Source of the DNA: Chloroflexota bacterium
Lineage (GTDB): Bacteria; Chloroflexota; Dehalococcoidia; JACPPY01
Direction: 5' to 3'
Length of the DNA stretch: 64,000 nt
Assembly: GCA_016190755.1 (NCBI GenBank)
Contig: JACPPY010000072.1
Span: 37,458 to 101,457 of the forward strand
Both the position numbers and the translations under genes were made by a program. Below are positions 9,083-44,293 of this stretch, piece after piece; within the stretch, counting starts at the first letter, position 1, and each line of letters opens with the position of its first letter. The notes below the pieces were generated by a model that saw only the letters and a program-made list of their open reading frames with translations, had not been told where the DNA came from and searched no databases.

Positions 9083-10927
9083 ATGATCGATTCCAAGCTG
9101 AACGGAGGGTACACGGGGCGGGTGCTTTGGGTAAATCTGACGAAAGGTCAGACTGCTGCAGAGGCCCTGGACGCGGATGTTGCCCGGAAGTTCATCGGTG
9201 GGGCAGGGCTGGCATCCAGGATCATATGGGACAAGACGGATAAGGACACTGAGGCCCTTTCACCGGAGAACCTACTGATTTTCGCCGTCGGCCCTCTCAC
9301 CGGGACCAGCGTTCCGATGAACAGCCATTACACAGTTGCCGCTATCTCTCCCCTGACAGGGATCTGGGGTGAGGGACACTCGGGCGGCACATGGGCCTAT
9401 CAGCTCAAGCATGCCGGCTTCGATGCCGTAGTTTTTAGCGGCAAGGCGTCGAAGCCGGTCTATCTGTTCATAAATAACGGCAAGACCGAGATAAGGGATG
9501 CGGGCCGTGTCTGGGGCAAGGGCGTTTTCGATACCAGCGATATGCTCCAGGCCGAAACCGACCCGAAGGCCAGCGTGGCCTGTATCGGCCCGGCTGGAGA
9601 AAAGCTGGCACGTATTGCCTGCATCATTAACGAGGGCAGGATAGGCCGCGCCGCTGCCCGTTGCGGGCTGGGCGCTGTCATGGGCTCGAAGAACCTGAAG
9701 GCTGTGGTCGTGCGCGGGACAGACCCCCTCAAAGTTTATGACCGGGAAGGTTTGCACGACAGCGCGGCAAGGTTCAACCAGCGCTCGGCGGAGCAGCTCA
9801 AGGATTGGAAGTCCACTGCCAGGAGGCGGAGCTCCCTTGCAGCTTCGTGGCAGAAGGGCAGGCTGAATTTCCAGAACTACCTGGGCAATGACCTGCCGGG
9901 TTTTAAGGACAGTTTCATCGAGACCCTGCAGCAGGGCGAAGAGTACTATTGCACCACCTGTCCCAGAAGCCATGCCGAATGCAGGTTGGTAAACGGGCGC
10001 CGCCGTGTTCTCTGGGAAGCCATGGGACCTCTGGGTGCGCAGTGCTGCATAGCCGATGTCAAGGCACTTCAGGAAGCCCAGGACCTTTGCCAGGACTACG
10101 GAGTCGATACGATATCCGCGGGTGGCGTCATGTCTTTCGCTATCGAGGTGTTTGAGAAAGGCCTGATAACCCGGGCGGACACGGATGGCGTCGTCCTCGG
10201 ATGGGGCAATGCCCCGGGGATGCTCCAGATGCTGAAGAAAACGCTTTGCCGGGAGGGTTTCGGCTCGGTGCTGGCGGAGGGTGTGCGCAGGGCTGCTGAG
10301 CAGATTGCCCCCGTCGCAATGGAATATGCCGTGCATGTCAAAGGCATGGAGCTCGCTGCCCATAATCCGAGGGGCAGCAACGCCATCGCCCTGGAAAACG
10401 CCACCGCCAACCGCGGAGCGGACCATCTTTCCGCCAACGCATGCATGGACACGGTTGACTATCCCGAATTGGGTATTTCAGCGAAGGAACACCTCATCGG
10501 GAGTCGGTTCAAGGTGGAAGGCCAGGGGCAGATGGTGGCCCGGCTCCAGGACTTTTCGTGCCTCATCGATTCGGTGGTCATCTGCAAACTCATCATCCAG
10601 CCGGGACCGATGGGGCTGCAGCCCGGCGACCTGGTTGAATGGATGAACCTGGCGACGGGCTGGGATATGGACCTCAAAGAGCTGATGACCGCTGGCGAAA
10701 GGATATTCAACCAGCAGCGCCTGATCAACACGAGGAAAGGCATCAGCCGCAAGGACGATTTCCTGCATCCCAGGCTACTCACGCATAAGCTGGGCGGCAC
10801 TATTGACTGCGCACAGCACCTGCCCCCGATAGGTGAACTGTTGAACCAGTATTACGCCAACCGCGGTTGGAGTGAAGAGGGCCTGCCTACTAATGACAAA
10901 CTGGCAAGCCTTGGCCTCAGAGCCTAG
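9083..10927 (+). CDS. aor: Aldehyde:ferredoxin oxidoreductase family protein (tungsten/molybdopterin)
   Basis: 614 aa. AOR N-terminal domain signature (GGYTGRVLWVNLTKG...FIGGAGLASRIIWD...FAVGPLTGT). Length and C-terminal domains fit AOR-family enzymes. Good RBS. Confidence 0.9.
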   Translation: MIDSKLNGGYTGRVLWVNLTKGQTAAEALDADVARKFIGGAGLASRIIWDKTDKDTEALSPENLLIFAVGPLTGTSVPMNSHYTVAAISPLTGIWGEGHSGGTWAYQLKHAGFDAVVFSGKASKPVYLFINNGKTEIRDAGRVWGKGVFDTSDMLQAETDPKASVACIGPAGEKLARIACIINEGRIGRAAARCGLGAVMGSKNLKAVVVRGTDPLKVYDREGLHDSAARFNQRSAEQLKDWKSTARRRSSLAASWQKGRLNFQNYLGNDLPGFKDSFIETLQQGEEYYCTTCPRSHAECRLVNGRRRVLWEAMGPLGAQCCIADVKALQEAQDLCQDYGVDTISAGGVMSFAIEVFEKGLITRADTDGVVLGWGNAPGMLQMLKKTLCREGFGSVLAEGVRRAAEQIAPVAMEYAVHVKGMELAAHNPRGSNAIALENATANRGADHLSANACMDTVDYPELGISAKEHLIGSRFKVEGQGQMVARLQDFSCLIDSVVICKLIIQPGPMGLQPGDLVEWMNLATGWDMDLKELMTAGERIFNQQRLINTRKGISRKDDFLHPRLLTHKLGGTIDCAQHLPPIGELLNQYYANRGWSEEGLPTNDKLASLGLRA

Positions 10928-11002
10928 AGGCGGGATTTGGGGCAGTCGGAATCTGCCGTCGGGCCTTCGAACTAGCGCAAAAAAGCGATCATTTCGTCGG
11001 GG

Positions 11003-12991
11003 GTGAAGTCATTGAATGGTCCTGGAACATTCAATAAGTACCCTGCCCTCTTCTCGCCTATCAAAATCGGTGGTCTGGAGCTCAAAAACCGCATCGTGAT
11101 GCCCCCGATAACCACTAACTTTCCAGACAAGGGCTTTGTCACCGACCGCCTCATAAGCTACTATGCCCGCCGGGCAGAGGGCGGAGCCGGGCTCATTATC
11201 ATCGAGGACGCCATCATCGACCCGCCTCGCGGCTGCTATCACTATGAGGACATTCATATCGACAACGATGTCTATTTGCCCGGACTCAGAGCTCTGGCCA
11301 GCGCCGTGAAATCCGCTGGGGCCAGTGTGGCGGCGAACCTCAGCCACGGTGGGAGAAAATCGGGTGTGGTGGAAGACGGACAGCTCATACGCAGCCACGG
11401 GACCATTCCAGTGGCTCCCTCCGCAATCGCGGACCCTTTTCCCGGTTACATCGTCCCATCAGAGTTGACCATTGATGAGATAGAAGAGTTGGAGGAGAAG
11501 TTCGTCTCGGCTGCGGCGAGGGCATGCGAGGCAGGCTTCGACGTTATCTCCCTTCACGCCGCCCATATGTACCTCATCGATCAGTTCCTTTCGCCAATAT
11601 CGAATCACAGGGACGACCTCTACGGCGGAGACCTGGATGGCAGGATGCGGTTCCTTCTCGAAATCATAGCTAAGGTACGCGCCAGGGCAGGAAGCGTGCC
11701 CCTCATGGTGCGTATTGACGGGCAGCAGTATATGCCCGGGGGCATAACGGTCGAAGAGGCCTCGGAGATCGCGCGAAGGTTGGAAGCGGCTGGAGTGGAC
11801 TGCCTTAGCGTTTCCATCGACCCTACCGGCCTCGGCTTCCTGCCCCTCGACCCGAGTGTCCCGCAGGCGGCCTCAAGCTGGCGGGGACCATGGGCCGCCA
11901 TGGTACATCTTGCCGAGGCAGTGAAGCGGGCAGTATCTATCCCCATGATGACGGCCAATCGTATCGTTACGCCCGCGCTGGCCGAGGAGATACTCGTCCA
12001 CGGCAAGGCCGACCTCATAGGCATCGGCAGGGGGCTTATCGCCGATCCGGACTGGCCCGCGAAAGCGCTTGAGGGGAGGGAGACCTCTATCCGGCACTGC
12101 ATAGGTTGCCTGCGCTGCCTGGATGTGACCAGGGACAGGGAAGCGTTAAGGTGCACCGTTAACCCGGCAGCCGGACGGGAGAATGATTCCCAGATAAATC
12201 CCTCCAGCCGTCGGCGGAAGGTCTTCGTCGCCGGCGCCGGGCCCGCAGGAATGGAGGCAGCGCGGGTAGCAGCCTCACGCGGACATGAAGTCCGCCTTTT
12301 TGAGAAAGACACTCTCGGCGGTCAGCTAAAACTGGCCAGCATCCCGCCCGGGAAAAAAGACCTGGGCCTGCTGCTGGACTATGAGATGGGGCAGCTTGCC
12401 TGCCTCGGTGTAAACATAGAGATGCATGAGCTAACGGCTGAAACCATAGTACAGGGAAGGCCGGATGCGGTGGTGGTGGCGGTCGGGTCGCTGTCCGGCA
12501 GGTTAATGGTCCCGGGTTCGGAATCCGGGAACGTATTTGATATCAGGCAGGTGCTGAAAGGAGAAGTTGAGCCAGGTAAGAGGGTGGTGATCATCGGCGG
12601 AGACCAGGCAGGGGCGGAAACCGCCGAATACCTCGCGCAAAAAGGCAGGATAGTGACTATCGTCCATGAAGGTAGACAGATTGCTGGCGACATGTCCGGT
12701 GTCTGCCGGTTAGAGCTACTGGAGCGCCTGAGGCGCCTGGGGGTCAGGACGATGGTCAAGACCAAGGTCAATATGGTATCTCCGGAAGGGGTCATCGTCG
12801 AAACGAGAGGAGAAAGGCGAACGCTCTCGGCGGATACGGTGGTGACAGCTCTGCCACCCGAGCCTGAAGGAGCCCTTGCCGGACAGCTCCGGGGAATGAA
12901 CGTCAAAGTCCATGTTATCGGCGATTGCTCGAAGATAGCCGGGCTGGCCGGCGCCATCGAGGACGGATTCAGGGCAGGCTTGAAGGTCTAG
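11003..12991 (+). CDS. OYE-like FMN / 4Fe-4S / FAD-NAD(P) oxidoreductase (2,4-dienoyl-CoA reductase / enoate reductase family)
   Basis: 662 aa. OYE TIM-barrel motifs (LKNRIVMPPITTNF, HAAHMYLIDQFLSP). Cys cluster HCIGCLRC-x11-C. Two dinucleotide-binding motifs (GAGPAGMEAA, GGDQAGAETAE). GTG start at 11003; TTG 11012 is an alternative. Confidence 0.85.
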   Translation: MKSLNGPGTFNKYPALFSPIKIGGLELKNRIVMPPITTNFPDKGFVTDRLISYYARRAEGGAGLIIIEDAIIDPPRGCYHYEDIHIDNDVYLPGLRALASAVKSAGASVAANLSHGGRKSGVVEDGQLIRSHGTIPVAPSAIADPFPGYIVPSELTIDEIEELEEKFVSAAARACEAGFDVISLHAAHMYLIDQFLSPISNHRDDLYGGDLDGRMRFLLEIIAKVRARAGSVPLMVRIDGQQYMPGGITVEEASEIARRLEAAGVDCLSVSIDPTGLGFLPLDPSVPQAASSWRGPWAAMVHLAEAVKRAVSIPMMTANRIVTPALAEEILVHGKADLIGIGRGLIADPDWPAKALEGRETSIRHCIGCLRCLDVTRDREALRCTVNPAAGRENDSQINPSSRRRKVFVAGAGPAGMEAARVAASRGHEVRLFEKDTLGGQLKLASIPPGKKDLGLLLDYEMGQLACLGVNIEMHELTAETIVQGRPDAVVVAVGSLSGRLMVPGSESGNVFDIRQVLKGEVEPGKRVVIIGGDQAGAETAEYLAQKGRIVTIVHEGRQIAGDMSGVCRLELLERLRRLGVRTMVKTKVNMVSPEGVIVETRGERRTLSADTVVTALPPEPEGALAGQLRGMNVKVHVIGDCSKIAGLAGAIEDGFRAGLKV

Positions 12992-12998
12992 TTTAAAG

Positions 12999-14390
12999 GT
13001 GAAGGCAATGAGTGTACTGGACGATATCATAAGCAATATACTCGAAACCCCGTTTGAGAAATTCGCCACTGCGACTGTCGAAAACGCCAAAAAGCGCATC
13101 ATAGATGTTGTCGGCTGTTCCGTTGCAGGGGCAAAGGTGGAGGCCTTTCCCGTAATCCTTGACCTCGTCAGGGACTGGGGTGGGAGGGCGGAAAGCGTGC
13201 TGCTGGCCTGCCCGGGAGTGCGTGTCCCGGCCCAAAACGCGGCCTTCGCCAACAGCATTCTGGCCAGCGCATTCGACTACGATCCTCTCCATCCGCTGGT
13301 CGAGAACAGAGTCTATGTCGGGCATATCAGCGGGACAACAATACCCGCAGCCCTGGCAGTCGCCGAGCAGCAGGCGTTGAGTGGCGAAGAACTGCTGGTG
13401 GCGCTGATAGTCGGGGAAGACCTCGTCGCGAGGACCATAGATGCCCTGGACTACAAGTCTTCCCGGGGAGCGACCACGGGATGGAGCGCTGAGAACAGCA
13501 TAGCTATTCTCGGGACGGCCGCCAGCGCGGGGAGGATGTACTCTCTCAATGCGGCCCAGATGCGGAACGCTCTGGGCATCGCGGTAAACCAGGCCGGGGG
13601 GAGCGTGCAGACCCTGCACGAAAAGTCGCACTGTTACAAGCTGAACCAGGGTTTCGGGGCGAAAAACGGTATTGTGTCAGCACAGTTGGGACGGCAGGGA
13701 TTCGCGGGCCTCGAAGACCCCCTCTTCGGTGCGTATAGCTATTTTGCTTTGTTTTCAAGGGAGTACCGTGCAGAGTCGTTGACCAGGGACCTTGGCAAGA
13801 AGTTCTATGCCGATTCTGTTATTAAGCGTTACCCTTCATGCCTGGGAAACAGCGCCGCCATAAGCTGTGCTCTGGAGTTGGTGCAAAAACACGCCTTCGA
13901 GCCAGCCGACATCGATAGTGCGACCGTGAGGGTATTCGTGAAATCAGGTCATGATGTGCTCTTCAAGCCCTTTGAGGTGGGCGATGACCCCCACATGGAC
14001 GCCAACTGGAACATGGCCTATAACATCGCCAACGTGTTGCTCCGAAAGTGCGTCAAAATCGAGCATGTGACGCCCGATTTCGTCCGCGATCCTCAGGCCC
14101 TGGACCTGGCCGGAAGGGTGGAGGCTGTAAAGGTATCCTCCCCCGAATACCCGAAGGTCGAACTGATCGTCAGGCTCAGGAACGGGCAGGAGTTGGTTAA
14201 CCGCTCCGATGAAAGTGATGAAGACCTACCGTTCCGCCCTCTGAGCATGGAGGCCGTCAAGGAGAAATGTCGCAGCAACATCGCCTTCGGGAGAGGAAAG
14301 GTAAGCCCAGGGGTTGAGCAGGCCTTGCGCATGCTCGAAAACCTGGAGGATGTGCGGGATATCCGCGTGGTTACGGGTCTATTGGGCTGA
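12999..14390 (+). CDS. MmgE/PrpD family protein (2-methylcitrate dehydratase-like)
   Basis: 463 aa. The N-terminal helical domain pattern (FEKFATATVENAKKRIIDVVGCSVAG) and the length are typical of MmgE/PrpD. Starts 8 nt after the upstream gene. Confidence 0.8.
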   Translation: MKAMSVLDDIISNILETPFEKFATATVENAKKRIIDVVGCSVAGAKVEAFPVILDLVRDWGGRAESVLLACPGVRVPAQNAAFANSILASAFDYDPLHPLVENRVYVGHISGTTIPAALAVAEQQALSGEELLVALIVGEDLVARTIDALDYKSSRGATTGWSAENSIAILGTAASAGRMYSLNAAQMRNALGIAVNQAGGSVQTLHEKSHCYKLNQGFGAKNGIVSAQLGRQGFAGLEDPLFGAYSYFALFSREYRAESLTRDLGKKFYADSVIKRYPSCLGNSAAISCALELVQKHAFEPADIDSATVRVFVKSGHDVLFKPFEVGDDPHMDANWNMAYNIANVLLRKCVKIEHVTPDFVRDPQALDLAGRVEAVKVSSPEYPKVELIVRLRNGQELVNRSDESDEDLPFRPLSMEAVKEKCRSNIAFGRGKVSPGVEQALRMLENLEDVRDIRVVTGLLG

Positions 14391-14400
14391 AGCCCTGACT

Positions 14401-15795
14401 CTAGCCCACGCCGAGATTTTTCTTGTAGTCCGGGTCATATTCGTTGATTATGCCCAGCTCTATTTGCTTGGCGGGGGGCACGACGCCCCAGCCGGATGAA
14501 GCCATACGGTCGGCCTCGGTAGGCTTTGTGCCGATAACCCCTTCCTTAGCAAGCTTTTCGACCTCATCTTCCGAAAGGCCCAGAAGATTGACCAGGATAT
14601 CACGGTTATCCTGACCAAGGCGCGGGGCGGCACTTAGCTCTTGGGGTTCGGCTCCAGGCGTCTTCCAGGCCGCTCCGGGATAGATTCGGGTTCCCATGTC
14701 CTCGTTTCCGGCCGCCTGAGGATGCCGGACCTTGTGGAAGTAGCCTCGTTGGTTCAGGTGCGTATCAAGATGTAGGTCCCGTGAATTGAGAACGGCGGCT
14801 GCGGGCACGCCGGCTTTTTGCAGGAGCTCCATTACCTCGCGGTTCTCATGTTCCATGGTCCAGCCCTCGATATGGGCGTCAAGCTCGTCCTGGTTATGCC
14901 ATCGCGATGGCCCGGATGAGAATTTCTCGTCTTTGGTCCAGGCAGGGCTGCCAAGCGCCCGGGACAGGGCATCCCACTCTTTGTCTGAGGTTACTGCGAT
15001 AGTCACCCATCTGTCATTACCCTTGCATCGGTAGCACCCGTGTGGCGCCATGAACTGGTGGCGGTTTCCCATGCGCATGGGCTCTTTGCCGTTGACCGAG
15101 TGCTCCACGATCGCTTCCCCCAGATGCATGGCGGCCGCTTCCATCTCCGAGATATCTATCCACTGCCCTTTGCCGGTGTGGTGGCGATACTCCAGGGCCA
15201 TGAGGATGCTCAGGGTAACGTACTCGGCCCCAATCCAGTCCGACACCGGGGCTATCATTTTCACCGGCGGCCCACCCCTGTACCCGGTAACATGCGCGAG
15301 GCCGGTCATCGCATCCACCGCCAGGCCCCAGGCTGCCCAGTCGGCCCATGGGCCGCTGTCGCCGTAGCCGCTGGCGGAGACCATGATGATATCAGGTTTG
15401 ATTTTTGCCAGGGACTCCCAGTCCAGCCCCAGATTCCGCTTGACCCGCGGAGACCAGTTCTCCGCGACAACATCGCTTTTTTTGACCAGCTCCTTGAAAA
15501 TCTCAATACCCCGGGGTTTGGAAAGATCCAGCGCGAGGGACTTCTTATTGGTATTGATGGAATTGAATCGCGCTGACTTGTTCCAGAACTCGCCGGACAT
15601 CTTATTATCGGCATAGCTGCCGAAACGGGTTACGTCCGGCCGGCCGGCTGACTCGATACGGATGACCTCCGCACCGAAGAGCGCCAGGTTGCGGGTGGCA
15701 ACGGGCACGGCCACCGCGACGCCCAGGTCCAGAATCCTGATTCCCTTGAGCGCGGGTTTTTTCAATTCAGTACCCCCAGCTCCCTTGATACTCAT
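14401..15795 (-). CDS. Family III CoA-transferase (CaiB/BaiF/Frc type), paralog 2
   Basis: 464 aa. N-terminal signature LKGIRILDLGVAVAVPVATRNLALFGAEVIRIES. Convergent with the PrpD-like gene; only 10 bp separate the stops. Confidence 0.85.
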   Translation of the reverse strand: MSIKGAGGTELKKPALKGIRILDLGVAVAVPVATRNLALFGAEVIRIESAGRPDVTRFGSYADNKMSGEFWNKSARFNSINTNKKSLALDLSKPRGIEIFKELVKKSDVVAENWSPRVKRNLGLDWESLAKIKPDIIMVSASGYGDSGPWADWAAWGLAVDAMTGLAHVTGYRGGPPVKMIAPVSDWIGAEYVTLSILMALEYRHHTGKGQWIDISEMEAAAMHLGEAIVEHSVNGKEPMRMGNRHQFMAPHGCYRCKGNDRWVTIAVTSDKEWDALSRALGSPAWTKDEKFSSGPSRWHNQDELDAHIEGWTMEHENREVMELLQKAGVPAAAVLNSRDLHLDTHLNQRGYFHKVRHPQAAGNEDMGTRIYPGAAWKTPGAEPQELSAAPRLGQDNRDILVNLLGLSEDEVEKLAKEGVIGTKPTEADRMASSGWGVVPPAKQIELGIINEYDPDYKKNLGVG

Positions 15796-15817
15796 TCACC
15801 AATCCAAGACAGCCTGG

Positions 15818-17026
15818 CTAAATAGCCCCCAGGTTGCGCAGCCGAACGATGTCCTCGCCGGAGAATCCGAGAAGCCCGGAATAGACCACAGCGTTATGCT
15901 GCCCCAGCAGCGGCGCCGGGGACTCGATCCGGGCGGGTGATGCCGCCATTTTGAAAGGCGCTCTAGGCATGGTGATCTTCCCGGCGTGCGGGTGCGTCAG
16001 AGTAGCAAAGTATTCCCGTGCCAGCAACTGCTCGCAGGTGCTCAGGTCTTGTATCGTCTGCACCATACCGAAAGGGAACCGCCAGGCCTGCGCTGTGGAG
16101 ACCAGTTCCCGTGTTTTCCACTTGGCGAACTCACGGTTGAGAATATCGAGAAGCTCCTGCGCGTTTACATCCCGCCCGGTTGGGTTGTCGAACTTGGGCA
16201 CATCGAGCTCGGGGCAGTTCATCATCGTTGAGAAGGACTTCCAGTCGGTGTACCCGTAGAACACCGGAGCCAGATAACCATCGGCGGTCTTCATGAGGAC
16301 TTCGTAGAGCCGGGGGCTCTTCGGGAGCCGCCTCATCACTGCGCCGGCATACGGGTAAAGCGCAGCCAGGAAATTAGTTATAGGCATCATGCTTTCCATG
16401 ATCGAGACATCGACAAACTGGCCCGAATTATCCTCATGGTTGGCATATACTGCGGCGACGGTCGCCGAAGCGGCATACCCGCCGGCGAAATACTGCCCCT
16501 GAAGCAGGCCGTGCTTCAAAGGGGAGCCTTCGTAGGTACCCAGCATGTACATGATGCCGCTTAATGCGTACTCTATGAGCTCGGTGGCGCGGTAATCACG
16601 ATACGGTCCCGTGGCGCCGAAATTGGAGATGGAGACCATGATGAGTCGCGGATTGAGCTTTTTCAGGTACTCATAGCCCAGGCCGAGCTTCTGGAGGTAG
16701 CCCGGCCTGAAGCTTTCGACGAGAACATCCGCCCAACCGACCAGCCGCTTCAGTATCTCTTTGCTATCGCTGCTCTTCAGGTCAAGCGTGACGCTTTTCT
16801 TGTCCGTGTTCAAATACAGGAAGAGCGCGCTGGCTTCGGGATCGGGCTGTCCGTTAACAGGTGCGCCTATCAGCCGTGCGCCGTCACCGGTGCCCGGTTT
16901 CTCGACCTTGATAACGTCTGCGCCGTATGTGGCGAGGAGCTTCGTGCAGTAGGGCCCAGCAACGTAATGCGTGAGATCCAGGACCTTCAGCCCGGATAGG
17001 GCGCCTTTTTCAGAGATCAACAACAC
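15818..17026 (-). CDS. Family III CoA-transferase (CaiB/BaiF/Frc type), paralog 1
   Basis: 402 aa. N-terminal signature LSGLKVLDLTHYVAGPYCTKLLATYGADVIKVEKPGTGD. GTG start. Lies 22 bp upstream of the second transferase. Confidence 0.85.
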   Translation of the reverse strand: MLLISEKGALSGLKVLDLTHYVAGPYCTKLLATYGADVIKVEKPGTGDGARLIGAPVNGQPDPEASALFLYLNTDKKSVTLDLKSSDSKEILKRLVGWADVLVESFRPGYLQKLGLGYEYLKKLNPRLIMVSISNFGATGPYRDYRATELIEYALSGIMYMLGTYEGSPLKHGLLQGQYFAGGYAASATVAAVYANHEDNSGQFVDVSIMESMMPITNFLAALYPYAGAVMRRLPKSPRLYEVLMKTADGYLAPVFYGYTDWKSFSTMMNCPELDVPKFDNPTGRDVNAQELLDILNREFAKWKTRELVSTAQAWRFPFGMVQTIQDLSTCEQLLAREYFATLTHPHAGKITMPRAPFKMAASPARIESPAPLLGQHNAVVYSGLLGFSGEDIVRLRNLGAI

Positions 17027-17165
17027 CCCTTTCGGAGGCCAATATTCGTAGATCCCATATGGGGTTGGTAGCCGGCGTCATACTCGCACAGCCTCAATGG
17101 AGGCTGATCCCAATACCTTCAGCAGCGACGTAGTTTAACACAATGGCCTTGGCCGGTCTTGTTTC

Positions 17166-19613
17166 TTAGACTTTCGCTACGGCCTCTTCGAGGGCCTTCT
17201 CCATCATCCCAGTCCCCCAGGACAGATGCTGGGTGCGCATGATGATCTGGTTCTGCAAATCGGTCGGAAGCTCCACGAAATAAGCGCTGTACCCTGCGAT
17301 GCGGACAATGACATTCTTGTAGTTTTCGGGGTGCTTCTGAGCTTCGAGCAATGTCTTGCGGTCCCAGATGTTGAACTGGATATGGAAGTGGCCCAGGTCT
17401 GCCCAAGTCTTGAGATAGGCCATGAATATTTCTTTATTCGGACCTCTCAGCAGGTCTGCGCTGAATTTCTGGTTGAACAAATGGTTATGGCTGCGCAGCG
17501 GGTCTATCTTGGAGGTAGACTTGAGCACAGCGGTCGGGCCGAGCATATCCTGGCCGGCAACCGGGGATATGCTGCCGTCATTGAAGGGCTGGCGGGCTTT
17601 GCGTCCATCAGGGGTGGCCGCCGTCTGGTCCCCATAGCCGATGTAGCCGGCCCCCGCGCTGCCGTCGAATGTGATTGGGCCGCCCCAGTAGTTCTTGACC
17701 TTCTTCAGGCGGCTGTTCAGGCGGTAGTGGATATCCCTGGCGATAAGGTCCACATAGTCATTGTCGTTGCCGAACTTGGGGGCTTTGAGGCAAAGCTGCC
17801 GCAGGTCTTCGTAACCTTCCCAATTCGCCTTAAGCGCCTTGACCATATCCGGCAGGATGAGCCTTTTCTCGTCGAAGACGAGCTTTCTGATGGCCGCCAG
17901 AGAGTCGGCGACCGTCGTCCCGCCCAGGTTGCCCATCGTCTCCTTTGGTATGTAGCTCCAACCCTTGCAGTCGCGTGCCTGCTCGATGCAACCGTCCAGC
18001 ATGGCTGAGAAGAATGGTCGCGGCAGGTACTCTTCGTAGAGCGCATTGCCGACCTCGTTTATCTGCGCCAGCTTTTCGGCGAAGAACCCTGCCTGGGTGA
18101 TAAAAGCGTCGATTATCTCATCGACATTGCGGAAGGTAGCCGGGTCGGGCGTGGGATAGCCTATCATCTCTCCGGTGAGCATGCATTTGCCCTGGTTGAG
18201 CGCCAGCTCAAAGCACTTTGCCAGCACCAGGTGACCGACATGGGCGCGGTCTGAGAGGTTCTTACCCGGCAGCGTCCAGCGTACGCATCCTTCCATCGCG
18301 TAGTCACGGGCGACGTTCAGGGGCACGCCGAACTCCAGCAAGTATGGGACCATCATCTCATCGTTGAACAAGGCCGGGTAGCCGACGCCGGTCGCGATTA
18401 CATCGACGGCCTTGGAGACAAGCTCAGGGTCTATCTTGGGATGATATCTAAGGCAGAGAGATGGCTGAAGTGTCTGCATTTCTTTCGAGGCATCCAAGAC
18501 GATGAAAGACACCTCGTTAGTGACGTCATCGCCTTCCGGCGTGACTCCGCCGATGGTCAGGTTCTGCCACAGACTGCTGGCGCCTATCTGTGAGCCCCAC
18601 ATCGGCGGGTAAAGGTCGCCGCGCTCTTCGAGCTTTATCCACAAGCACTCGACCAACTCCTGCGCCTCTTCCCGGGTTATCCGCCCTTCGCGCTTGTCCT
18701 TCTCGTAGAAAGGATAGAAATCACGGTCGAACCGCCCGGCGCAGCCGTTCATCTGCATCTCGATCGATCGGCTTATTACCGTCACGAGCCAGAAGAACTG
18801 TACCGCTTCATAGAATGTGCGAGGTGGGTTTTCAGGCACCCATTCGCAGATTTCGGCAAGTCGTTCAAGCTCGGCCTTGCGGGACAGGTCGGGATGGGCA
18901 CTGGCCTGCTCACGCGCCAGCTTAGCGAAGCGGTGTGAGAACTTGATCGCCGCCTGGAGCGATATGACGACGGCATCAAGGAAGTTCTTTTTATTCAGGT
19001 ATTCCTTGCCAGGCATCTTCTTATCGGCCTGAACTTCCTTGAGCTTGTCCTGCGCCTCCTGGATAAGGCCTTTGAAGCCCACCTGGAAAAGCTTGCGGAA
19101 GTTGGGTATGCCGGAGCTTGTGCCGTATGACCAGACATGCGCTCCCTTGTAAGCCCAGTAGGGTTTCAGGTCGTCGGGGATAAGGTCTCGTTCCTTTCCT
19201 TGGACCGACTTGTCCTTCCAATACTTGTTAAGCTCGTGGACTTCCTGTCTCTCCGCCTCGGAGAGCATGCCCTTGTACTCGCGGTCGACGGACTTGTCCA
19301 GCCAGCGCCAGTAGCATTCAGGGTAATATGGCAGAGAGGCGGTAGTGGAGGCGTAGTTCCCCGCCAGGAGCTGCCCTTCATCGATGTAAATGGTCATTTT
19401 CCCCAGGATTTTTTCGAGGGCGCGGGCACGGCGCAGCACCATAGGCTGACCTTCGGTCTCTTTGTAGGACTCCGTTACGAGGCGCGCCCGCTCGAGACAG
19501 ATTTTGACGTCCGGGCCATAGGCCACATCGCTCATCTTGGTGTAGCCCTTGGCCACTGAGTGGTAGATTTTGTCTACCATGTTTCGTTTCAGTCCCTGTG
19601 TCCTCTCACTCAT
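17166..19613 (-). CDS. Glycyl radical enzyme (PFL2/glycerol-dehydratase-like superfamily), substrate unknown
   Basis: 815 aa. C-terminal glycyl-radical fingerprint VIVRIAGYSAYFVEL...QNQIIMRTQH (Gly774 codon at 17292-17294). Cys loop GYPALFNDE...VARDYAMEGCVRW (Cys443 codon at 18285-18287). Confidence 0.9.
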   Translation of the reverse strand: MSERTQGLKRNMVDKIYHSVAKGYTKMSDVAYGPDVKICLERARLVTESYKETEGQPMVLRRARALEKILGKMTIYIDEGQLLAGNYASTTASLPYYPECYWRWLDKSVDREYKGMLSEAERQEVHELNKYWKDKSVQGKERDLIPDDLKPYWAYKGAHVWSYGTSSGIPNFRKLFQVGFKGLIQEAQDKLKEVQADKKMPGKEYLNKKNFLDAVVISLQAAIKFSHRFAKLAREQASAHPDLSRKAELERLAEICEWVPENPPRTFYEAVQFFWLVTVISRSIEMQMNGCAGRFDRDFYPFYEKDKREGRITREEAQELVECLWIKLEERGDLYPPMWGSQIGASSLWQNLTIGGVTPEGDDVTNEVSFIVLDASKEMQTLQPSLCLRYHPKIDPELVSKAVDVIATGVGYPALFNDEMMVPYLLEFGVPLNVARDYAMEGCVRWTLPGKNLSDRAHVGHLVLAKCFELALNQGKCMLTGEMIGYPTPDPATFRNVDEIIDAFITQAGFFAEKLAQINEVGNALYEEYLPRPFFSAMLDGCIEQARDCKGWSYIPKETMGNLGGTTVADSLAAIRKLVFDEKRLILPDMVKALKANWEGYEDLRQLCLKAPKFGNDNDYVDLIARDIHYRLNSRLKKVKNYWGGPITFDGSAGAGYIGYGDQTAATPDGRKARQPFNDGSISPVAGQDMLGPTAVLKSTSKIDPLRSHNHLFNQKFSADLLRGPNKEIFMAYLKTWADLGHFHIQFNIWDRKTLLEAQKHPENYKNVIVRIAGYSAYFVELPTDLQNQIIMRTQHLSWGTGMMEKALEEAVAKV

Positions 19614-19652
19614 CTCTTGCCTCCTGAAAGTGATTCCTGACGACTCTCCCAG

Positions 19653-20501
19653 CTAAAGCTTGAACACTTTTACCGCATTATCATGGAGCAGTTTCTTTTT
19701 GACGTCTTCCTTAAGGCCAAGGTCATCAATCTGCTGTAGCATCTTGTCCCAGGGAAGTCCGTTGCTGCCCCAAATGACCTTATCCTGACCCCGGGTGTTG
19801 ATAAACTTAACGACGTTCGGCTCGAGGTATTTCGGCATATGGGCGTCGACGCCGAAATAGATATTGTCGTACTTATAGCATATCGCAATAAGCTCCTCGC
19901 ACCAAGGATAACCGGTATGCGCGCCGATTATCTTGAGGCTGGGGAAATCGAGCGCAATGCGGTCCAGGTAGATGGGCCGGCCGTATTCGCTGTACATAGC
20001 CTCAAGCACGTACCCGACCTGTAGCGCCACCGGAACACCAAGCTCCTGGCACTTGGCATAAAGGGGATACATTGTCCTGTCATCTATGGCTGTATCGAAA
20101 CCGTAGACATGGACATATACTCCCTTAAAGCCATGGTCTTTCACCAGCCATTCGATTTCCTCAAGGCTTTCTTTGATCCTGAAGGGATTATAAGAAGCCA
20201 GGCCGGCAAAGCGGTCGGGATGTTTTTCCGTGTACTGAAGCACCTCTTCCGCCTTGGTATCGACATACCAGCGCTTGTTCCAGTGAGAGAACATCCTGAA
20301 CTCGCTGATAAGGACCTTCTCCACGTTTGCCTTGTCCATGGCCTCGATCATCTTTTCGATGCTGGGGTATGACGGCGGTTTGCCTCCAAGCGAGGCTTGC
20401 ATCCGGCAGATAATCTCCTGCTTGCCGGCCACATCCACCCTATCAACCCACTCCGGCGTTGTGACCGAGTTAAGAAAATCGATGGCCTTTATCTGTGGCA
20501 T
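19653..20501 (-). CDS. Amidohydrolase-2 family TIM-barrel protein (ACMSD/LigW/LigI-like)
   Basis: 282 aa. Family-like blocks GAHTGYPW and VIWGSNGLPW. The N-terminal strand reads AIDFLNS rather than the usual D-x-H-x-H, so the metal site may be atypical. Confidence 0.7.
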   Translation of the reverse strand: MPQIKAIDFLNSVTTPEWVDRVDVAGKQEIICRMQASLGGKPPSYPSIEKMIEAMDKANVEKVLISEFRMFSHWNKRWYVDTKAEEVLQYTEKHPDRFAGLASYNPFRIKESLEEIEWLVKDHGFKGVYVHVYGFDTAIDDRTMYPLYAKCQELGVPVALQVGYVLEAMYSEYGRPIYLDRIALDFPSLKIIGAHTGYPWCEELIAICYKYDNIYFGVDAHMPKYLEPNVVKFINTRGQDKVIWGSNGLPWDKMLQQIDDLGLKEDVKKKLLHDNAVKVFKL

Positions 20502-20555
20502 TCGCTATCCCTTCTATGCAGTTTTCGCAATCTGTTCTCAGGCCTTGGGCGGTGC

Positions 20556-21341
20556 CTATACCATAGCGTATCCGCCGTCGACGCTCAGAGTCTGCCCGGT
20601 AATAATGCCTGCGGCGGTGTCCGAGGCCAGGAAGACCACCGCGCTGGCGATATCCTTGGGCGCGGCCCCTTTACGCAGCGGATAGGCTTTCAGGGCTTTT
20701 TCGAGTACCTCGGGCGGCACAGGTGGTTCCTTCCAGGCGCTCTTGGCGCCCACCTCCTCCGGTTTTTCAGGTGCTACCAGGGAGGGGCAGACAACGTTCA
20801 CGCGTATATTGAACCTGCCGGCCTCTCGGGCGATTGCTTTCGAAAAGGCGATGACCGCCCCCTTACAGCCGGAGTAGACTGCTTCGCGGGCTTCGCCGAG
20901 CCTCCCGGCATCAGAACCGATATTAACGATCGCCCCACCGCCGTTCTGGGACATGTGCGGGAGAACAGCGCTTATCCAGTTCAGGTCCGTCTTGAAGTTG
21001 ATGGTAAGAAGCCTGTCCCACAGCTCCGGGTTAGTCTCAGTGAAAAAGGCTATCCGGTCCCAACCGACGTTGTTCACCAGGACATCCACCTTGCCGAACT
21101 CACCGAGGACCTTTTTAAGGGCAGCAGCTACGGCGTCATGGCTGGTGGCATCCGCGAGCACCACCATGGCCTTGACCCCCAGGCTGCGCGCCTTCTCGGC
21201 GGCGCGGTTCGCCTGTTCTTCGTCGATATCGGCTATGGCTACGTTAGCGCCCTCTTTTGCGAAGGCCAGCGTGATACCGTAGCCAATGTTTGAAGCCCCG
21301 CCGCTGATGATGACGTTCTTGCCTTTTAGTCCCAGGTCCAT
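20556..21341 (-). CDS. Short-chain dehydrogenase/reductase (SDR)
   Basis: 261 aa. Cofactor motif ISGGASNIGYG, NNVG, and catalytic YSGCKGA (YxxxK). Confidence 0.9.
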   Translation of the reverse strand: MDLGLKGKNVIISGGASNIGYGITLAFAKEGANVAIADIDEEQANRAAEKARSLGVKAMVVLADATSHDAVAAALKKVLGEFGKVDVLVNNVGWDRIAFFTETNPELWDRLLTINFKTDLNWISAVLPHMSQNGGGAIVNIGSDAGRLGEAREAVYSGCKGAVIAFSKAIAREAGRFNIRVNVVCPSLVAPEKPEEVGAKSAWKEPPVPPEVLEKALKAYPLRKGAAPKDIASAVVFLASDTAAGIITGQTLSVDGGYAMV

Positions 21342-21368
21342 TCTTCCTCCTAGTCTGTGACTAACGTG

Positions 21369-23429
21369 CTAATTGGCTCGTGCGATACGGCACGGCACTC
21401 CTTTTAGCCTGGGGAACCCGGAAATAGGATCCACTGGAGCATTGTCAGTCAAGAGATTGATGTTGGCATCCGCCCATCCGTGAGTGGCACTGAGCACGCC
21501 CGGCAGAATGTCTTCGGTGACCAGGGCTTTAACCGTGATTCTGCCGTTTTTGGTTTCGAGGATAGCGGACTTGCCGTTCTCAATGTTGTACTTGCTGGCG
21601 GTTTCGGGATGAATTTCTACCGCGTGCTCAGGGAGAATCTTGCGCAGCCTGGCAACCTGGCGCAACTGAGAGTGACAGAAAGGAAGTTTACGCGAGCCGG
21701 TCACCATGATCAACGGATAGGAGCCTCCGTTGCCGCCCGCGGCTGGCTGAGGCTCGCGGTAGGTTGGCAGCGGGTCATGCCCCAACTCTTCGAGGGTCTT
21801 GGAATATACCTCCATCTTGCCGGAAGGCGTGGGGAATCCACGGGTTTCATACTCCCTGAGCTTGACCGTGCCGTAGGTTACGCCGCCTGGGTCCTGTTTC
21901 GATAGCTTCTCTATTGACAGTCCCGAAGGCTCGAAAATATAGTCGATAGCCTCGTCAGCGGTTTGCCATGGGAAGTACTCTCCATAGCCCATACGCTTGG
22001 CGAGTTCGAGGTAGAAGGTCATGTCCGAGCGGCTTTCCTCATAAGTCACTATCTTTTTCTGCAACATAACGAACGGAAGTCCGTGCAGCATACGATAAAA
22101 GTCAAAGATGACGTTTCTCTCGAAGCAGCTGGCGGCGGGCAGCACAATGTGCGCCATCTCCGTGGTCCGGGTTGGGAAGAGGTCCATGGCCACAAGGAAG
22201 TCTAGGCTTTGCAGTGCTTCAGTCACTTTCCTGGAGTTGGGCCATGTCAACGCCAGGTTGGAGCCGGAAACAATGGCCGCCCTCACAGGGTAAGGCTTGC
22301 CATGGAGTATTGCATCCGGGAGGAGCATTGATTGCCCTTCACCCTCACCGATAAGCTTTCCCCAGACACCGTAGAATAGCGGGTACTTGTCTACGCCCAG
22401 AGGCTTGTGCTTCAAGAGATTTTCAAGCCTTACAGGCTTATGCCTGATGCTGGAAGTGGTGATGAATCCTCCCGGTACCTCGAAATTACCCGTGATAGCC
22501 TGTAGAATACAGCGCGCCCGGGAGAGCTGGACTCCCGAGCCTTGCTCCTCGAGAGTGTTGCTATAGGTGGCGATACACGCGGGCTTGATAGTGGCGAAGT
22601 CGCGGGCAATCTGTCGAATTTGTTGGGCGGGCACCCCAGTGAGCTCTTCAACCTTCTCCGGTGCGTAAGCCTTGATGTGTTCGGTGAGCTTGTCGAAGCC
22701 CAGCGCCCATTTGACGACGAAGTCCTTATCGTAGAGTCCTTCGCTGATAATGACGTTGAGCAACCCGAGCATAAGGGCGAGGTCGGTGCCCGGGCGTGGG
22801 GCGACATAGATGTCCGCTTTCTTCGCCAGGGCGGTGCGTCGCGGGTCGATGACAATCAGCCTGGTGCCTTTTTGCTTTAGCTGCAAGATGTCTCTAGCGA
22901 GGAACGGTTGTGAGTCGGAAGGGTTGGTCCCCCAGACCAGGATGCAGCGTGCGTTCTTCGGGTCGGGCAGCCCGTACTTCCCGAGAGTCAAGATATCCCC
23001 GATGATGAACGCGCGCCAGCACATGCTGTCAACCGAGAAGACACTTGGGGTACCATAGGCATCGCAAAAGCGGCGCACAAAAGTGATCGTGGCGCTGCCC
23101 TGCGTCAGAATGGGTTGTCCGAAACACACAGCCAGCGCGGTGGGGCCGTATTTTTCTTTAACCTTGCTAAGGTTGGCGGCGACGGTATCCAACGCCTCGT
23201 CCCAGGAGATCCTCTTGAAACCGTTGCCTTCCTTGCGCAAAGGAGATTTTATACGGTCCGGGTGGTAGATCATGCTCGCGGCATTGCGGGCACGGGCGCA
23301 TATCATACCCTTGTTTAAGGGATGCTCGGTCATCCCTTCCACTTTTTCTATTCGTCCGTCTGGACCAACAATAACGTTGAGACCACAACCAAGTCCACAG
23401 ATGCCGCAGGCTGTCTTGATCGTTTCCAA
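21369..23429 (-). CDS. Molybdopterin oxidoreductase (MopB superfamily), cytoplasmic, single subunit
   Basis: 686 aa with a TTG start. N-terminal FeS motif C-x2-C-x3-C-x28-C (ACGICGLGCG...GMICARA). No twin-arginine signal. C-terminal molydopterin dinucleotide-binding beta-barrel-like end (ILPGVLSATHGW). Confidence 0.85.
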   Translation of the reverse strand: METIKTACGICGLGCGLNVIVGPDGRIEKVEGMTEHPLNKGMICARARNAASMIYHPDRIKSPLRKEGNGFKRISWDEALDTVAANLSKVKEKYGPTALAVCFGQPILTQGSATITFVRRFCDAYGTPSVFSVDSMCWRAFIIGDILTLGKYGLPDPKNARCILVWGTNPSDSQPFLARDILQLKQKGTRLIVIDPRRTALAKKADIYVAPRPGTDLALMLGLLNVIISEGLYDKDFVVKWALGFDKLTEHIKAYAPEKVEELTGVPAQQIRQIARDFATIKPACIATYSNTLEEQGSGVQLSRARCILQAITGNFEVPGGFITTSSIRHKPVRLENLLKHKPLGVDKYPLFYGVWGKLIGEGEGQSMLLPDAILHGKPYPVRAAIVSGSNLALTWPNSRKVTEALQSLDFLVAMDLFPTRTTEMAHIVLPAASCFERNVIFDFYRMLHGLPFVMLQKKIVTYEESRSDMTFYLELAKRMGYGEYFPWQTADEAIDYIFEPSGLSIEKLSKQDPGGVTYGTVKLREYETRGFPTPSGKMEVYSKTLEELGHDPLPTYREPQPAAGGNGGSYPLIMVTGSRKLPFCHSQLRQVARLRKILPEHAVEIHPETASKYNIENGKSAILETKNGRITVKALVTEDILPGVLSATHGWADANINLLTDNAPVDPISGFPRLKGVPCRIARAN

Positions 23430-23688
23430 GGGAAGTACCTCCGCGTCCTGCTGAAATGGGCAAGACAGGGCCTAATAGGCGAAGTTCATATTCTGAACAA
23501 TCCTCAGCCCAATATACAAAACCAAGCGATCTCTTGTCAAAAGAGGTCAGTAACCCCAACAAAGCAGCGTTTCCGGGTATGTGCAACCTCCGGATGCACA
23601 TTCTTGCACTGGGCCTCCCGAGCCCAGAATAATACCGTTCAGTCCACGGTGAAAACGACTTTAGTCTCATACAAAGAGATTGCACGGT

Positions 23689-23883
23689 ATAGTACACCAG
23701 CTTGTCCACGTTGTACCTCGTGGCAAAGCCTGGGGAAGTCCTGTCCTTGTACTGCTGCACCCGCTGCACCAGATTGGTGGTGACTCCGGTGTAGAGTACT
23801 CTGTTGGTCTTGTTGGTCACGATGTAGACATAGGAGTGGCAGTAAACAGAGTATATTAGAGCACTGCCCGGTGAGGGATAGCA
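23689..23883 (-). pseudogene. Truncated GIY-YIG nuclease family gene (N-terminal half only)
   Basis: The frame is open from TTG 23883. It encodes ...YCHSYVYIVTNKTNRVLYTGVTTNLVQRVQQYKDRTSPGFATRYNVDKLVYY, which covers the GIY and YIG strands. After LVYY the expected AI.REK catalytic half is absent in all frames. The 217-aa track ORF (23167-23820) is read-through into non-coding DNA and the MopB gene. Confidence 0.55.
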
Positions 23884-25288: not shown

Positions 25289-25387
25289 ATTGATAGCCTC
25301 CTTCATTCACGGGAATGACCGCTGTTGCGGCCGGGTAATATCCTAATTACCTGAGGCAAGTTCGGGAATAGGTAGTCGTTGGGGATA

Positions 25388-26109: not shown

Positions 26110-26126
26110 CTGCCTCTGCTCCTCTC

Positions 26127-27995: not shown

Positions 27996-28111
27996 GTCGA
28001 TCTCTCTCCGTGACCGTTGAATGCCCGCTTTGGTTAGAGCATTCTACCACCGGCGTGGCTAGCGTGAAAATCGCTTCGTCAAGAGGTTGTTTCGAGATAT
28101 GCAGATCGGGC

Positions 28112-30404: not shown

Positions 30405-30415
30405 GTCTTCAATTG

Positions 30416-44290: not shown

Positions 44291-44293
44291 CCA

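Follow-up and report, generated by a model that had tools for sequence, protein, structure and literature searches.

What does a glycyl radical enzyme (GRE) do when it is encoded among CoA-transferases and molybdenum or tungsten enzymes, in a combination that matches no characterised GRE pathway? The question is raised by a gene island at positions 9083-23429 of a 64-kb stretch (the window) of a metagenome-assembled genome (MAG) from a groundwater- or sediment-type member of the Chloroflexota. Nine open reading frames (ORFs) are located in this island. Six lie on the minus strand and encode, in the order of transcription, a MopB molybdoenzyme, a short-chain dehydrogenase/reductase (SDR), an Amidohydro_2 protein, the GRE (identical to 'hypothetical protein HYX87_07650') and two family III CoA-transferases, CoAT_b and CoAT_a. 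The other three lie on the plus strand and encode a tungsten-type aldehyde ferredoxin oxidoreductase (AOR), an old yellow enzyme (OYE) domain fused to an FAD domain (OYE/FAD) and an MmgE/PrpD-family protein (PrpD-like). Pfam backs all of these domain calls, with E-values of 1e-34 to 1e-176. An earlier, sequence-only reading of the window had described the same nine domains in the same layout, and had proposed in addition that the nine genes form one self-contained pathway and that the missing activase sets the island apart. Our analysis places the emphasis elsewhere: the gene families are all known, and what is new is an uncharacterised, class-level branch of GREs with a diagnostic signature and an unusual conserved partner gene.

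Active-site motifs and class assignment of the GRE

The GRE gene (17166-19613, minus strand), which is also carried by sequencing run SRR12113390, encodes 815 residues that match the PFL-like (PF02901, E=9e-176) and Gly_radical (PF01228, E=7e-26) families of Pfam, the ten-stranded barrel and the C-terminal radical domain of the superfamily. Its translation contains a glycyl radical loop, R771-I-A-G774-Y-S-A-Y-F (17277-17303, minus strand), and a Cys loop, E441-G-C443-V-R445-W-T-L-P-G-K-N-L-S-D-R456 (18246-18293, minus strand), in which one catalytic Cys is accompanied by Glu at Cys-2, Arg at Cys+2 and Arg at Cys+13. The alignment columns of R771, G774, Y778 and C443 are each invariant in 120 of 120 relatives. 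An AF2 model built on 37 relatives has a pLDDT of 90.4 and a pTM of 0.91, and Foldseek aligns it with all the solved PFL-like GREs in the PDB at TM scores of 0.86-0.91 and 29-34% identity, a range that takes in every PFL-like class and prefers none. Judged from its motifs and from the predicted structure, the enzyme looks intact, full-length and catalytically competent.

To which GRE class does it belong? Among the solved relatives, hidden Markov model (HMM) scores are 476 bits for glycerol dehydratase (GDH, 1r8w), 466 for IseG, 387 for benzylsuccinate synthase (BSS, TutD), 355 for MasD and 350 for 2f3o. HpsG is the NCBIfam equivalog that scores highest, with 562 bits where 1000 are required, and all the equivalog scores are about half of their cut-offs. 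The protein also misses the cut-off of the PFL2-3 subfamily, broad as that model is (571.6 against 678.2); as a control, genuine HypD, HpsG and PFL2-3 members clear their own NCBIfam cut-offs.

The residues that mark the individual classes are also missing. The eliminases and isomerases (1r8w, propanediol dehydratase, IseG/IslA, HpsG, CutC, HypD and YbiW/PflD) provide the best matches (for GDH, a TM score of 0.90 and 34% identity), have the same overall size and, like the window GRE, need no accessory subunit; their CXE motif, however, is not found in the GRE, which has C443-V-R445 where GDH has C433-V-E435 and IseG has C-T-E, so that Arg takes the place of the Glu. Nor are the residues with which GDH binds its substrate kept: H164, H281/S282 and D447 align to G, M/N and H458 in the GRE. 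The adjacent Cys pair of PFL and TdcE is absent (G442-C443 instead), and the PFL model TIGR01255 gives 94 bits against a cut-off of 994. Arylacetate decarboxylases (HPAD, IAD, PAD and AAD) resemble the GRE family in that Cys+2 varies among their members, and differ in genomic context and, in the case of HPAD, in having a gamma subunit, which the window lacks; the GRE scores far below their equivalog cut-offs (HPAD, 301 against 1150 bits; IAD, 389 against 1100). In the X-succinate synthases (XSSs), which include BSS, MASS and limonenylsuccinate synthase, the Cys loop reads C-M-S-P-G, as against C-V-R-W in the window GRE; the consensus of the GRE family is C-M-R-W, with C-M-S-W as a subtype. Arg456 of the GRE stands at Cys+13 and Arg508 of BSS at Cys+15, in loops that differ in length when compared as sequences.

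A 2026 review of GREs assigns CXE to eliminases and isomerases, Glu to HPAD and IAD, an essential Gln484 to PAD and the CC pair to PFL; it mentions no Arg at Cys+2, and states that entire clades, notably environmental and archaeal ones, are without experimental validation (PMC13450708). No characterised GRE with such a Cys loop or gene context came up in the literature searched. Because of its Cys loop, its sub-cut-off NCBIfam scores and its 29-34% identity to the solved GREs, the enzyme matches no characterised GRE class. On this point the sequence-only reading was right, and the missing substrate and catalytic residues of eliminases, PFL and XSSs, together with the separate position of the GRE in a tree (see below), bear it out.

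Relatives of the GRE and their Cys-loop types

The closest protein to the GRE among 5.8 billion sequences is 56% identical. About 1300 relatives are found at E<=1e-50 in MAGs of Chloroflexi, Dehalococcoidia, Thermodesulfobacteriota, Desulfobacteraceae and Nitrospinae, and the GTDB representatives with such a protein include Asgard archaea (Hod-, Thor- and Promethearchaeota), at 44-48% identity to the window GRE. The presence of members in Asgard archaea implies an inter-domain transfer of this enzyme type. In the Asgard loci from Hodarchaeota (L005), Promethearchaeota (L007) and Thorarchaeota (L010), the Cys loop reads N-N-C-M-V-P-T-I-P-G-K.

Across 120 relatives the residue at Cys+2 is Arg in 83 and Ser in 22, the remainder being Phe, Tyr or Ala, and Glu is not among the five commonest residues. 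Positions Cys-2 and Cys+2 covary, in the combinations E…C.R, S…C.S and N/T…C.F/Y. The Arg at Cys+13 and an I-P-G-K turn are kept in nearly all the clade members examined. A distance-based neighbour-joining tree of 52 GREs (771 columns, 100 bootstrap replicates), which contains one XSS representative, unites all these Cys-loop types in one superclade (100/100) that stands apart from every CXE clade. The XSS representative, L065, is the nearest neighbour of the superclade, with a support of 69/100; with 966 bits to TutD it is a genuine BSS homologue, and its Cys loop reads C493-M-S-P-G…R508. Within the superclade, the window GRE forms the deepest branch of the R-type (C-M/V-R-W) subclade; R-type loops account for 76 of the 84 recognisable Cys loops in the loci used for the synteny analysis described below.

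Based on these alignments, the superclade is defined by the Cys loop x-x-C-[MV]-x-[WP]-x-[IL]-P-G-K…R, and the window GRE is placed as the earliest-branching member of its Glu(Cys-2)/Arg(Cys+2) subclade. The XSS neighbourhood of the superclade is a lead and not a result, because the tree is distance-based and one sequence stands for all XSSs in it. The superclade itself is a large, environmentally widespread and experimentally untouched branch of the GRE superfamily at the level of a class. A search of 1.84 billion representatives with a short profile of the Cys loop gave 22 matches, mostly fragments, and hence no useful estimate of the size of the clade.

Several genomes carry more than one member. 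Four superclade paralogues stand in an uninterrupted tandem array in one locus (L146:4166-14041), four copies are spread over a single locus from Chloroflexia (L006, 10001-20600), and two further loci (L004 and L157) hold two each. Multiple GRE paralogues per genome suggest a diversified substrate specificity.

Related environmental proteins have been given names in the literature. Zhang et al. (2021) called the GREs of the Asgard Hermodarchaeota 'Ass/Bss' from 29-33% identity and a single Cys only (PMC8163825). These proteins, and the PflD of Archaeoglobus fulgidus (2f3o), are like the window GRE environmental single-Cys GREs with ~30% identity to AssA/BssA, and GREs of this kind occur in sediment Asgard archaea and Chloroflexi; the published Hermodarchaeota proteins are possible members of the superclade. 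The A. fulgidus protein differs, in that the window GRE scores only 350 bits against it.

Gene neighbourhood of the GRE in the window and in related loci

The six minus-strand genes are separated, in operon order, by gaps of 27, 54, 39, 139 and 22 bp. A sigma-70-like promoter (TTGACA, 18 nt, TATATT; 11/12 matches) lies at 23511-23540 on the minus strand, ~80 bp upstream of the MopB start. The site is a consensus match, and sigma-70-like matches across the region are not above the shuffled expectation; only its position argues for it as the point from which the six-gene operon is likely to be transcribed. The tight gaps and the promoter upstream of MopB make the six genes look like a single operon. 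The plus-strand trio is a separate three-gene unit that converges on this operon. The 3' ends of the PrpD-like and CoAT_a genes are 10 bp apart (14391-14400), which leaves no space for a terminator on either strand, so that transcripts must read into the 3' end of the opposite unit. In all these respects (gene order, gaps of 22-139 bp, convergence across 10 bp) the earlier description agrees exactly with the coordinates, strands and lengths of the ORFs, as it does with Pfam in the nine domain identities, including that of a cytoplasmic MopB whose Fe4S4 domain starts at residue 1.

Is the nine-gene set conserved? A scan of metagenome contigs specific for the Cys loop provided 78 loci, and individually fetched contexts brought the total to 83 loci and 768 kb; co-occurrence was counted by tblastn of the nine window proteins against these 83 related GRE loci. 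Homologues of AOR are found in one locus (L140), of MopB in one and of the PrpD-like protein in none; OYE/FAD is found in five, the family III CoA-transferases in three, the SDR in four and Amidohydro_2 in five. An AOR gene near a GRE is also seen in L009 and L012, besides the family locus L140. Because AOR, MopB and PrpD-like are so rarely present, the nine-gene set is not a conserved unit; it is a lineage-specific assembly, and the self-contained pathway of nine genes that had been proposed fails the synteny test. What does recur are three sub-modules: Amidohydro_2 directly adjoining the GRE (window, L084, L102 and L159); SDR-Amidohydro_2-GRE in the same order (L084 and L102); and GRE-CoAT_b-CoAT_a (L008, a Chloroflexota MAG from a tar biofilm). 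The plus-strand trio and MopB are, we infer, lineage-specific additions to the GRE or mere neighbours of it.

Of particular interest is the Amidohydro_2 gene (19653-20501, minus strand; 282 residues; Pfam PF04909, E=2e-34), which is the neighbour most consistently linked to the GRE. It adjoins the GRE in each of the three distinct S-type loci from Chloroflexi that were examined (L085, L168-171 and L172), and the window protein is 36-42% identical to the GRE-adjoining Amidohydro_2 proteins of L085, L168, L172 and L135. The protein is atypical: it has no NCBIfam match, and its best PDB match is the uncharacterised structural-genomics protein BB4693 (3irs, 82 bits). Canonical decarboxylases, hydratases and lactonases of the family (ACMSD, LigW and LigI) carry an HxH motif on beta1 and an Asp on beta8. 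Neither is present in the window protein, which has A-I-D-F-L-N in place of the N-terminal HxH and WGSN-G where the family has GSD[WY]P. All the GRE-associated Amidohydro_2 proteins lack HxH, and those of the window and of the S-type loci (L085, L168 and L172) carry WG[ST]N-G. We read Amidohydro_2 as a dedicated partner of the GRE, possibly non-catalytic or accessory. The GRE review has no mention of amidohydrolases (PMC13450708).

The SDR (20556-21341, minus strand; 261 residues; Pfam adh_short and adh_short_C2) is 53% identical to its homologues upstream of Amidohydro_2-GRE in L084 and L102. Among NCBIfam models it scores best with BadH-like, at 223 bits where 431 are required, and its score against a glucose-1-dehydrogenase subfamily model is borderline (215.1 against 215). 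One of these two related loci, in which the arrangement is SDR-SDR-Amidohydro_2-GRE and the GRE is 53% identical to that of the window, also contains a gene of the formate/nitrite-transporter family (L102:11279-12097, minus strand) 3 kb from the GRE. Channels of this family accompany PFL (FocA), and carry other small anions too.

The operon ends with the CoA-transferase pair. CoAT_b (15818-17026, minus strand; 402 residues; Pfam CoA_transf_3, E=3.5e-97) and CoAT_a (14401-15795, minus strand; 464 residues; E=6.7e-106), the last operon gene, are only 29% identical to each other, and each has its own best matches in other pairs. For CoAT_b these are the first gene of the L008 pair and the gene in the bbsE position of L065 (35% identity each); for CoAT_a they are the second gene of the L008 pair (36%, 257 bits) and the gene in the bbsF position of L065 (34%, 219 bits), the bbsE/F labels in L065 being inferred from gene position only. 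Cross-matches of a to b-type and b to a-type proteins reach only 26-29%, and the b-then-a order is common to the window, L008 and the bbsE/F-position genes of L065. The scores against the L065 pair (149-219 bits) are no higher than those to generic family III models, and the NCBIfam equivalog scores of CoAT_b are far under their cut-offs. In XSS pathways, a two-subunit succinyl-CoA:X-succinate CoA-transferase follows the GRE, according to PMC12583861 and to titles in the reference list of PMC13450708.

What else surrounds the GREs of the superclade? Pfam families were counted among the 261 non-redundant ORFs that lie no more than 4 kb from the GRE in 74 loci; those that recur are the radical-SAM activase (26), carboxyl-transferases (19, often in tandem pairs), enoyl-CoA hydratase (ECH, 11), acyl-CoA dehydrogenase (ACAD, at least 9), Peripla_BP_6 (7), family I CoA-transferase (7) and succinyl-CoA-ligase-like proteins (4). 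Single related loci also hold methylmalonyl-CoA-mutase-like genes, CoA ligases, HGD/BcrAD sets and TRAP transporters. Tandem carboxyl-transferase pairs of ~510-545 residues are the commonest non-activase neighbour of the R-type GREs (L087, L097, L113, L123, L134, L140 and L167), often together with ECH and sometimes with an isochorismatase-like hydrolase (L140 and L167). The closest relatives of the window GRE sit in other contexts than its own: an HGD/BcrAD set; Peripla_BP_6; and an isochorismatase with a carboxyl-transferase pair. In L008 the GRE is flanked on one side by a D-2-hydroxyacid dehydrogenase and a three-subunit 2-oxoacid:ferredoxin oxidoreductase, and on the other by the CoA-transferase pair and a TRAP transporter.

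The island contains no regulator, transporter or radical-SAM activase, as had been noted before, and the negative for the activase extends to the whole 64-kb window: no CxxxCxxC motif occurs in any ORF of at least 120 residues, and tblastn with an activase from a related locus gives no match at E<=1e-4. The absence had been taken as a distinguishing feature of the island, a view that the related loci do not sustain. A GRE-type activase stands beside the GRE in 32 of the 83 family loci; where 3 kb or more of sequence is available on either side of the GRE, 11 of 22 loci have it within 3 kb, as do 2 of 6 whose GRE has an identity of 50% or more to that of the window. Since about half of the related loci are likewise without an adjacent activase, its absence is ordinary in this clade and no sign of anything unusual. 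One activase could plausibly serve several paralogous GREs (L004, L006 and L146). Thus, the earlier reading was correct about the uncharacterised GRE, and outran the evidence in its nine-gene pathway and in the weight it gave to the missing activase.

A conserved small subunit was not found within 1.5 kb of the GRE or of the activase in the family loci examined, where only clusters of spurious antisense ORFs appear; a 55-residue ORF that precedes the GRE in L165 and L166 is not shared by other loci. The gaps that flank the GRE in the window, just 39 and 139 bp, contain no small-subunit gene. In one locus only (L001:12581-12832, minus strand), a Cys-rich ORF of 83 residues (CxxC…CxxC…CxC) is placed immediately downstream of a GRE of 52% identity and is reminiscent of the small metal-binding subunits of XSSs.

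The remaining genes of the island can be assigned to known families at the level of enzyme type. MopB (21369-23429, minus strand; 686 residues), the first operon gene, contains Molybdop_Fe4S4 (residues 1-56), Molybdopterin and Molydop_binding domains; the Fe4S4 domain begins at residue 1 and there is no signal peptide, so that the protein is cytoplasmic. Its best solved relative is acetylene hydratase (2e7z, 318 bits), with which it shares a cytoplasmic location, an N-terminal [4Fe-4S] domain and a Cys ligand to W/Mo (M-C). An identity as acetylene hydratase is rejected, as the catalytic Asp13 is replaced by Gly (C-G-I-C-G-L-G-C against C-Q-S-C-D-I-N-C), and MopB is best described as a predicted cytoplasmic Mo/W-bisPGD enzyme of the acetylene-hydratase/Psr branch. 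The AOR (9083-10927, plus strand; 614 residues; Pfam AFOR_N and AFOR_C) scores 361 bits against 9mqx and 329 against 1aor, as compared with 227 against BamB (4z3w), and an identity as BamB, of class II benzoyl-CoA reductase, is rejected on these scores. OYE/FAD (11003-12991, plus strand; 662 residues; Pfam Oxidored_FMN and Pyr_redox_2) joins an OYE-type FMN domain to one for FAD/NAD(P) and is of the 2,4-dienoyl-CoA/enoate reductase type; in NCBIfam it scores highest, in each case under the cut-off, with mycofactocin OYE_2, bilirubin reductase and BaiCD. The PrpD-like protein (12999-14390, plus strand; 463 residues; Pfam MmgE_PrpD_N/C) has no NCBIfam match; its best PDB matches, cis-aconitate decarboxylase (CAD/IRG1, 95 bits) and IDS-epimerase (77 bits), place it nearer to these two enzymes than to PrpD. 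A molybdopterin-biosynthesis gene, MoeA, is present at 47033-48346 (minus strand), which is consistent with the genome making the Mo/W cofactor for MopB and AOR.

The flanks of the island are unrelated to it. FtsK, RNase J, UDG and genes for cytochrome c maturation/biogenesis (DsbD/CcmH) lie upstream; a GIY-YIG remnant, a collagen-repeat cytochrome c, and a LuxR response regulator with a histidine kinase (25450-27995) lie downstream. The GC content is 0.54-0.60 in the island, 0.57-0.62 upstream and 0.58-0.59 downstream, a base composition that shows no foreign signal, and the idea of a horizontally acquired island is rejected. The GIY-YIG ORF (23167-23820, minus strand) is rejected as a real gene: the match to the domain covers only ~46 residues at its N-terminus, the rest of the ORF is outside the family, and its overlap with the start of MopB amounts to 262 bp. 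The remnant, chiefly at 23680-23820 (minus strand) between the operon promoter region and the next gene, is probably a pseudogene. The cytochrome (24338-25306, minus strand) combines N-terminal collagen-like G-x-y repeats with a c-type cytochrome domain, an unusual pairing. At 28010-32680, SnoaL-like proteins have as neighbours a soluble glucose/sorbosone dehydrogenase (GSDH) and a PQQ beta-propeller dehydrogenase that carries a fused cupredoxin domain. The GSDH and PQQ proteins are periplasmic oxidative enzymes, and the same genome encodes the oxygen-sensitive GRE and the tungsten enzymes. A beta-oxidation-type cluster (41257-44710, plus strand), 18 kb from the GRE operon, encodes an enoyl-CoA hydratase, a 3-hydroxyacyl-CoA dehydrogenase, an SCP-x-type thiolase and a 138-residue DUF35/zf-ChsH2 OB-fold protein (44294-44710); its pairing of thiolase and DUF35 is BbsAB-like. 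A thiolase and DUF35 pair likewise lies ~1.7 kb from the GRE-Amidohydro_2 pair in L172.

Candidate reactions and what they would mean

Which reaction, then, may the operon carry out? The GRE has two conserved Arg residues that flank the catalytic Cys in sequence, keeps the acid/base and substrate residues of no class, and is embedded, in the window and in its relatives, among enzymes of carboxylic acids and CoA thioesters; its substrate is probably an organic acid. The explanation that we consider best overall, with a probability of roughly one in three (0.35), is a six-gene operon in which XSS-like GRE chemistry acts on a carboxylate and is followed by CoA transfer. Its mechanistic core, radical C-C chemistry of the XSS kind on a carboxylate substrate and subsequent CoA transfer, is our leading guess as to mechanism and is to be taken as a doubtful one. 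In such a scheme, the Gly774 radical would be installed by an activase encoded elsewhere in the genome, and the carboxylate group or groups of the substrate would be held by Arg445 and Arg456; in PFL, Arg435 and Arg176 bind pyruvate, and in BSS, Arg508 binds fumarate. Abstraction of a hydrogen atom would then lead to a C-C bond being made or broken on a (possibly unsaturated) dicarboxylate, the leading candidate reaction being an XSS-like addition to a fumarate-type acceptor. A heteromeric CoAT_b/CoAT_a pair would turn the acid product into its CoA thioester, as BbsEF and LssDE do, and the SDR and other enzymes would oxidise this thioester, with Amidohydro_2 serving as the dedicated partner of the GRE.

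Several likenesses to the XSSs speak for this scheme. The XSS representative is the nearest neighbour in the tree; both groups have a single catalytic Cys and a conserved Arg ~13-15 residues after it, and the start of the loop in the superclade consensus (C-M, with C-V in the window GRE) echoes the C493-M…R508 of BSS. The divergent CoA-transferase pair lies downstream of the GRE in the b-then-a order, which corresponds to E-then-F in BbsEF and to LssDE, and has subunit-specific best matches. Relatives of the GRE adjoin carboxyl-transferase, mutase, ACAD, ECH and CoA-ligase genes, a set that processes alkyl- and arylsuccinates in the alkylsuccinate pathways.

The weight on the other side is considerable. 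The window GRE is 30% identical to TutD and scores 387 bits against it, in contrast to 966 for a true BSS homologue, and HMM scores favour the eliminases (GDH and IseG) over BSS and MasD. It has Arg and Trp at Cys+2 and Cys+3 where XSSs have Ser and Pro, and the equivalence of Arg456 and Arg508 is approximate, the two residues standing at Cys+13 and Cys+15, and at -9 and -10 from the start of the following A-K helix, in a comparison of sequences. To our knowledge, all characterised XSSs carry beta and gamma subunits, whereas the superclade loci examined have no beta, gamma or delta subunit, and no conserved small Cys-rich subunit adjoins any family member examined. The pairing with XSSs comes from a distance tree with one XSS sequence and 69% support, in which the window GRE is a neighbour of that sequence and outside its clade. 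Organic-acid transporters (TRAP and Peripla_BP_6) near the relatives point to an imported acid and not to a hydrocarbon. The partners typical of the family (carboxyl-transferase pair, ACAD, ECH and activase) are absent from the island, as is a thiolase; and, as no relative exceeds 56% identity to the window GRE, what is concluded from the family context may not transfer to it. It is also conceivable, if well short of even odds, that the superclade performs a type of GRE reaction not yet known, being neither a formate lyase, an eliminase, an isomerase, an arylacetate decarboxylase nor a canonical fumarate adder.

Other explanations account for parts of the same evidence. The GRE could be a rewired radical eliminase (a dehydratase or lyase) of a hydroxy-acid, in which Arg445 binds the carboxylate, Glu441 replaces the CXE base and the product, a 2-oxo or deoxy acid, is passed to CoA-dependent enzymes. 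The top sequence scores, the covariation of Glu at Cys-2 with Arg at Cys+2, the acid transporters near many relatives and the L008 context (D-2-hydroxyacid dehydrogenase, 2-oxoacid:ferredoxin oxidoreductase, CoA-transferase pair and TRAP transporter) fit this proposal. The SDR and Amidohydro_2 directly precede the GRE in the window, L084 and L102, and the Amidohydro_2 family also includes sugar-acid lactonases; the window protein, however, lacks the HxH and beta8 Asp that are expected of a lactonase or decarboxylase. We consider a rewired eliminase unlikely overall, given that every GDH substrate residue compared is replaced, that the superclade is separated from all CXE clades (100/100), that the carboxyl-transferase pairs and mutases of the relatives are left unexplained, and that every characterised GRE eliminase or isomerase keeps CXE (PMC13450708). 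A radical decarboxylase of an imported aryl- or alkyl-(di)carboxylic acid, of the Kolbe or hydrogen-atom-transfer type and similar to HPAD, IAD or PAD, would have Arg445 hold the carboxylate by the thiyl radical. In HPAD the substrate carboxylate indeed adjoins the catalytic Cys, and the variation at Cys+2 among decarboxylases (Glu in HPAD and IAD, essential Gln in PAD) means that a new residue could signal a new substrate (PMC13450708); acid transporters near the relatives agree with an imported acid. This proposal is nevertheless improbable to a greater degree, in view of the low IAD and HPAD scores and the lack of a small subunit, and the downstream CoA machinery and the extra carboxyl-transferase (decarboxylase) genes of the relatives are hard to square with a terminal decarboxylation.

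Several points favour the original idea, in which all nine genes make up a single anaerobic pathway, complete in itself, that would act on a poorly activated acid or on a dicarboxylate derived from a hydrocarbon: the genes are tightly packed up to the 10-bp convergent junction, the enzyme set is chemically complementary, L140 unites OYE, GRE, activase and AOR, L009 unites OYE, GRE and AOR, and MoeA and the ECH/3-hydroxyacyl-CoA dehydrogenase/thiolase/DUF35 set are found elsewhere in the window. The near absence of AOR, MopB and PrpD-like from the family loci, the separate and convergent transcription of the trio and the quite different contexts of the closest GRE relatives make it improbable, if less so than a decarboxylase. 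That the GRE is a non-functional relic, as the missing activase might suggest, is the least probable of these explanations by far: the catalytic motifs are all intact and match the family-invariant residues, the ORF is full-length, lies in a tight operon and has a confident predicted fold, half of the related loci share the lack of an adjacent activase, and the search for an activase covered the 64-kb window of the MAG.

Past discoveries of new GRE classes (CutC, HypD, IslA, YbiW and the XSSs) have repeatedly been found to underlie whole anaerobic pathways. For the present clade, the signature E-x-C-x-R…R with its S/S and N/aromatic variants, the Amidohydro_2 partner and the CoA-transferase and carboxyl-transferase neighbours provide handles. 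If the superclade does perform a new type of reaction, Amidohydro_2, conserved and apparently without a metal site, would be a new kind of GRE accessory partner, and the operon would be the entry step of an undescribed anaerobic organic-acid pathway in subsurface Chloroflexota, Thermodesulfobacteriota and Asgard archaea. Related proteins are annotated in metagenome studies as alkyl- or benzylsuccinate synthases at ~30% identity, and these annotations are the basis on which hydrocarbon degradation has been attributed to Asgard archaea. Knowing the true function of this clade would underpin or overturn that attribution.

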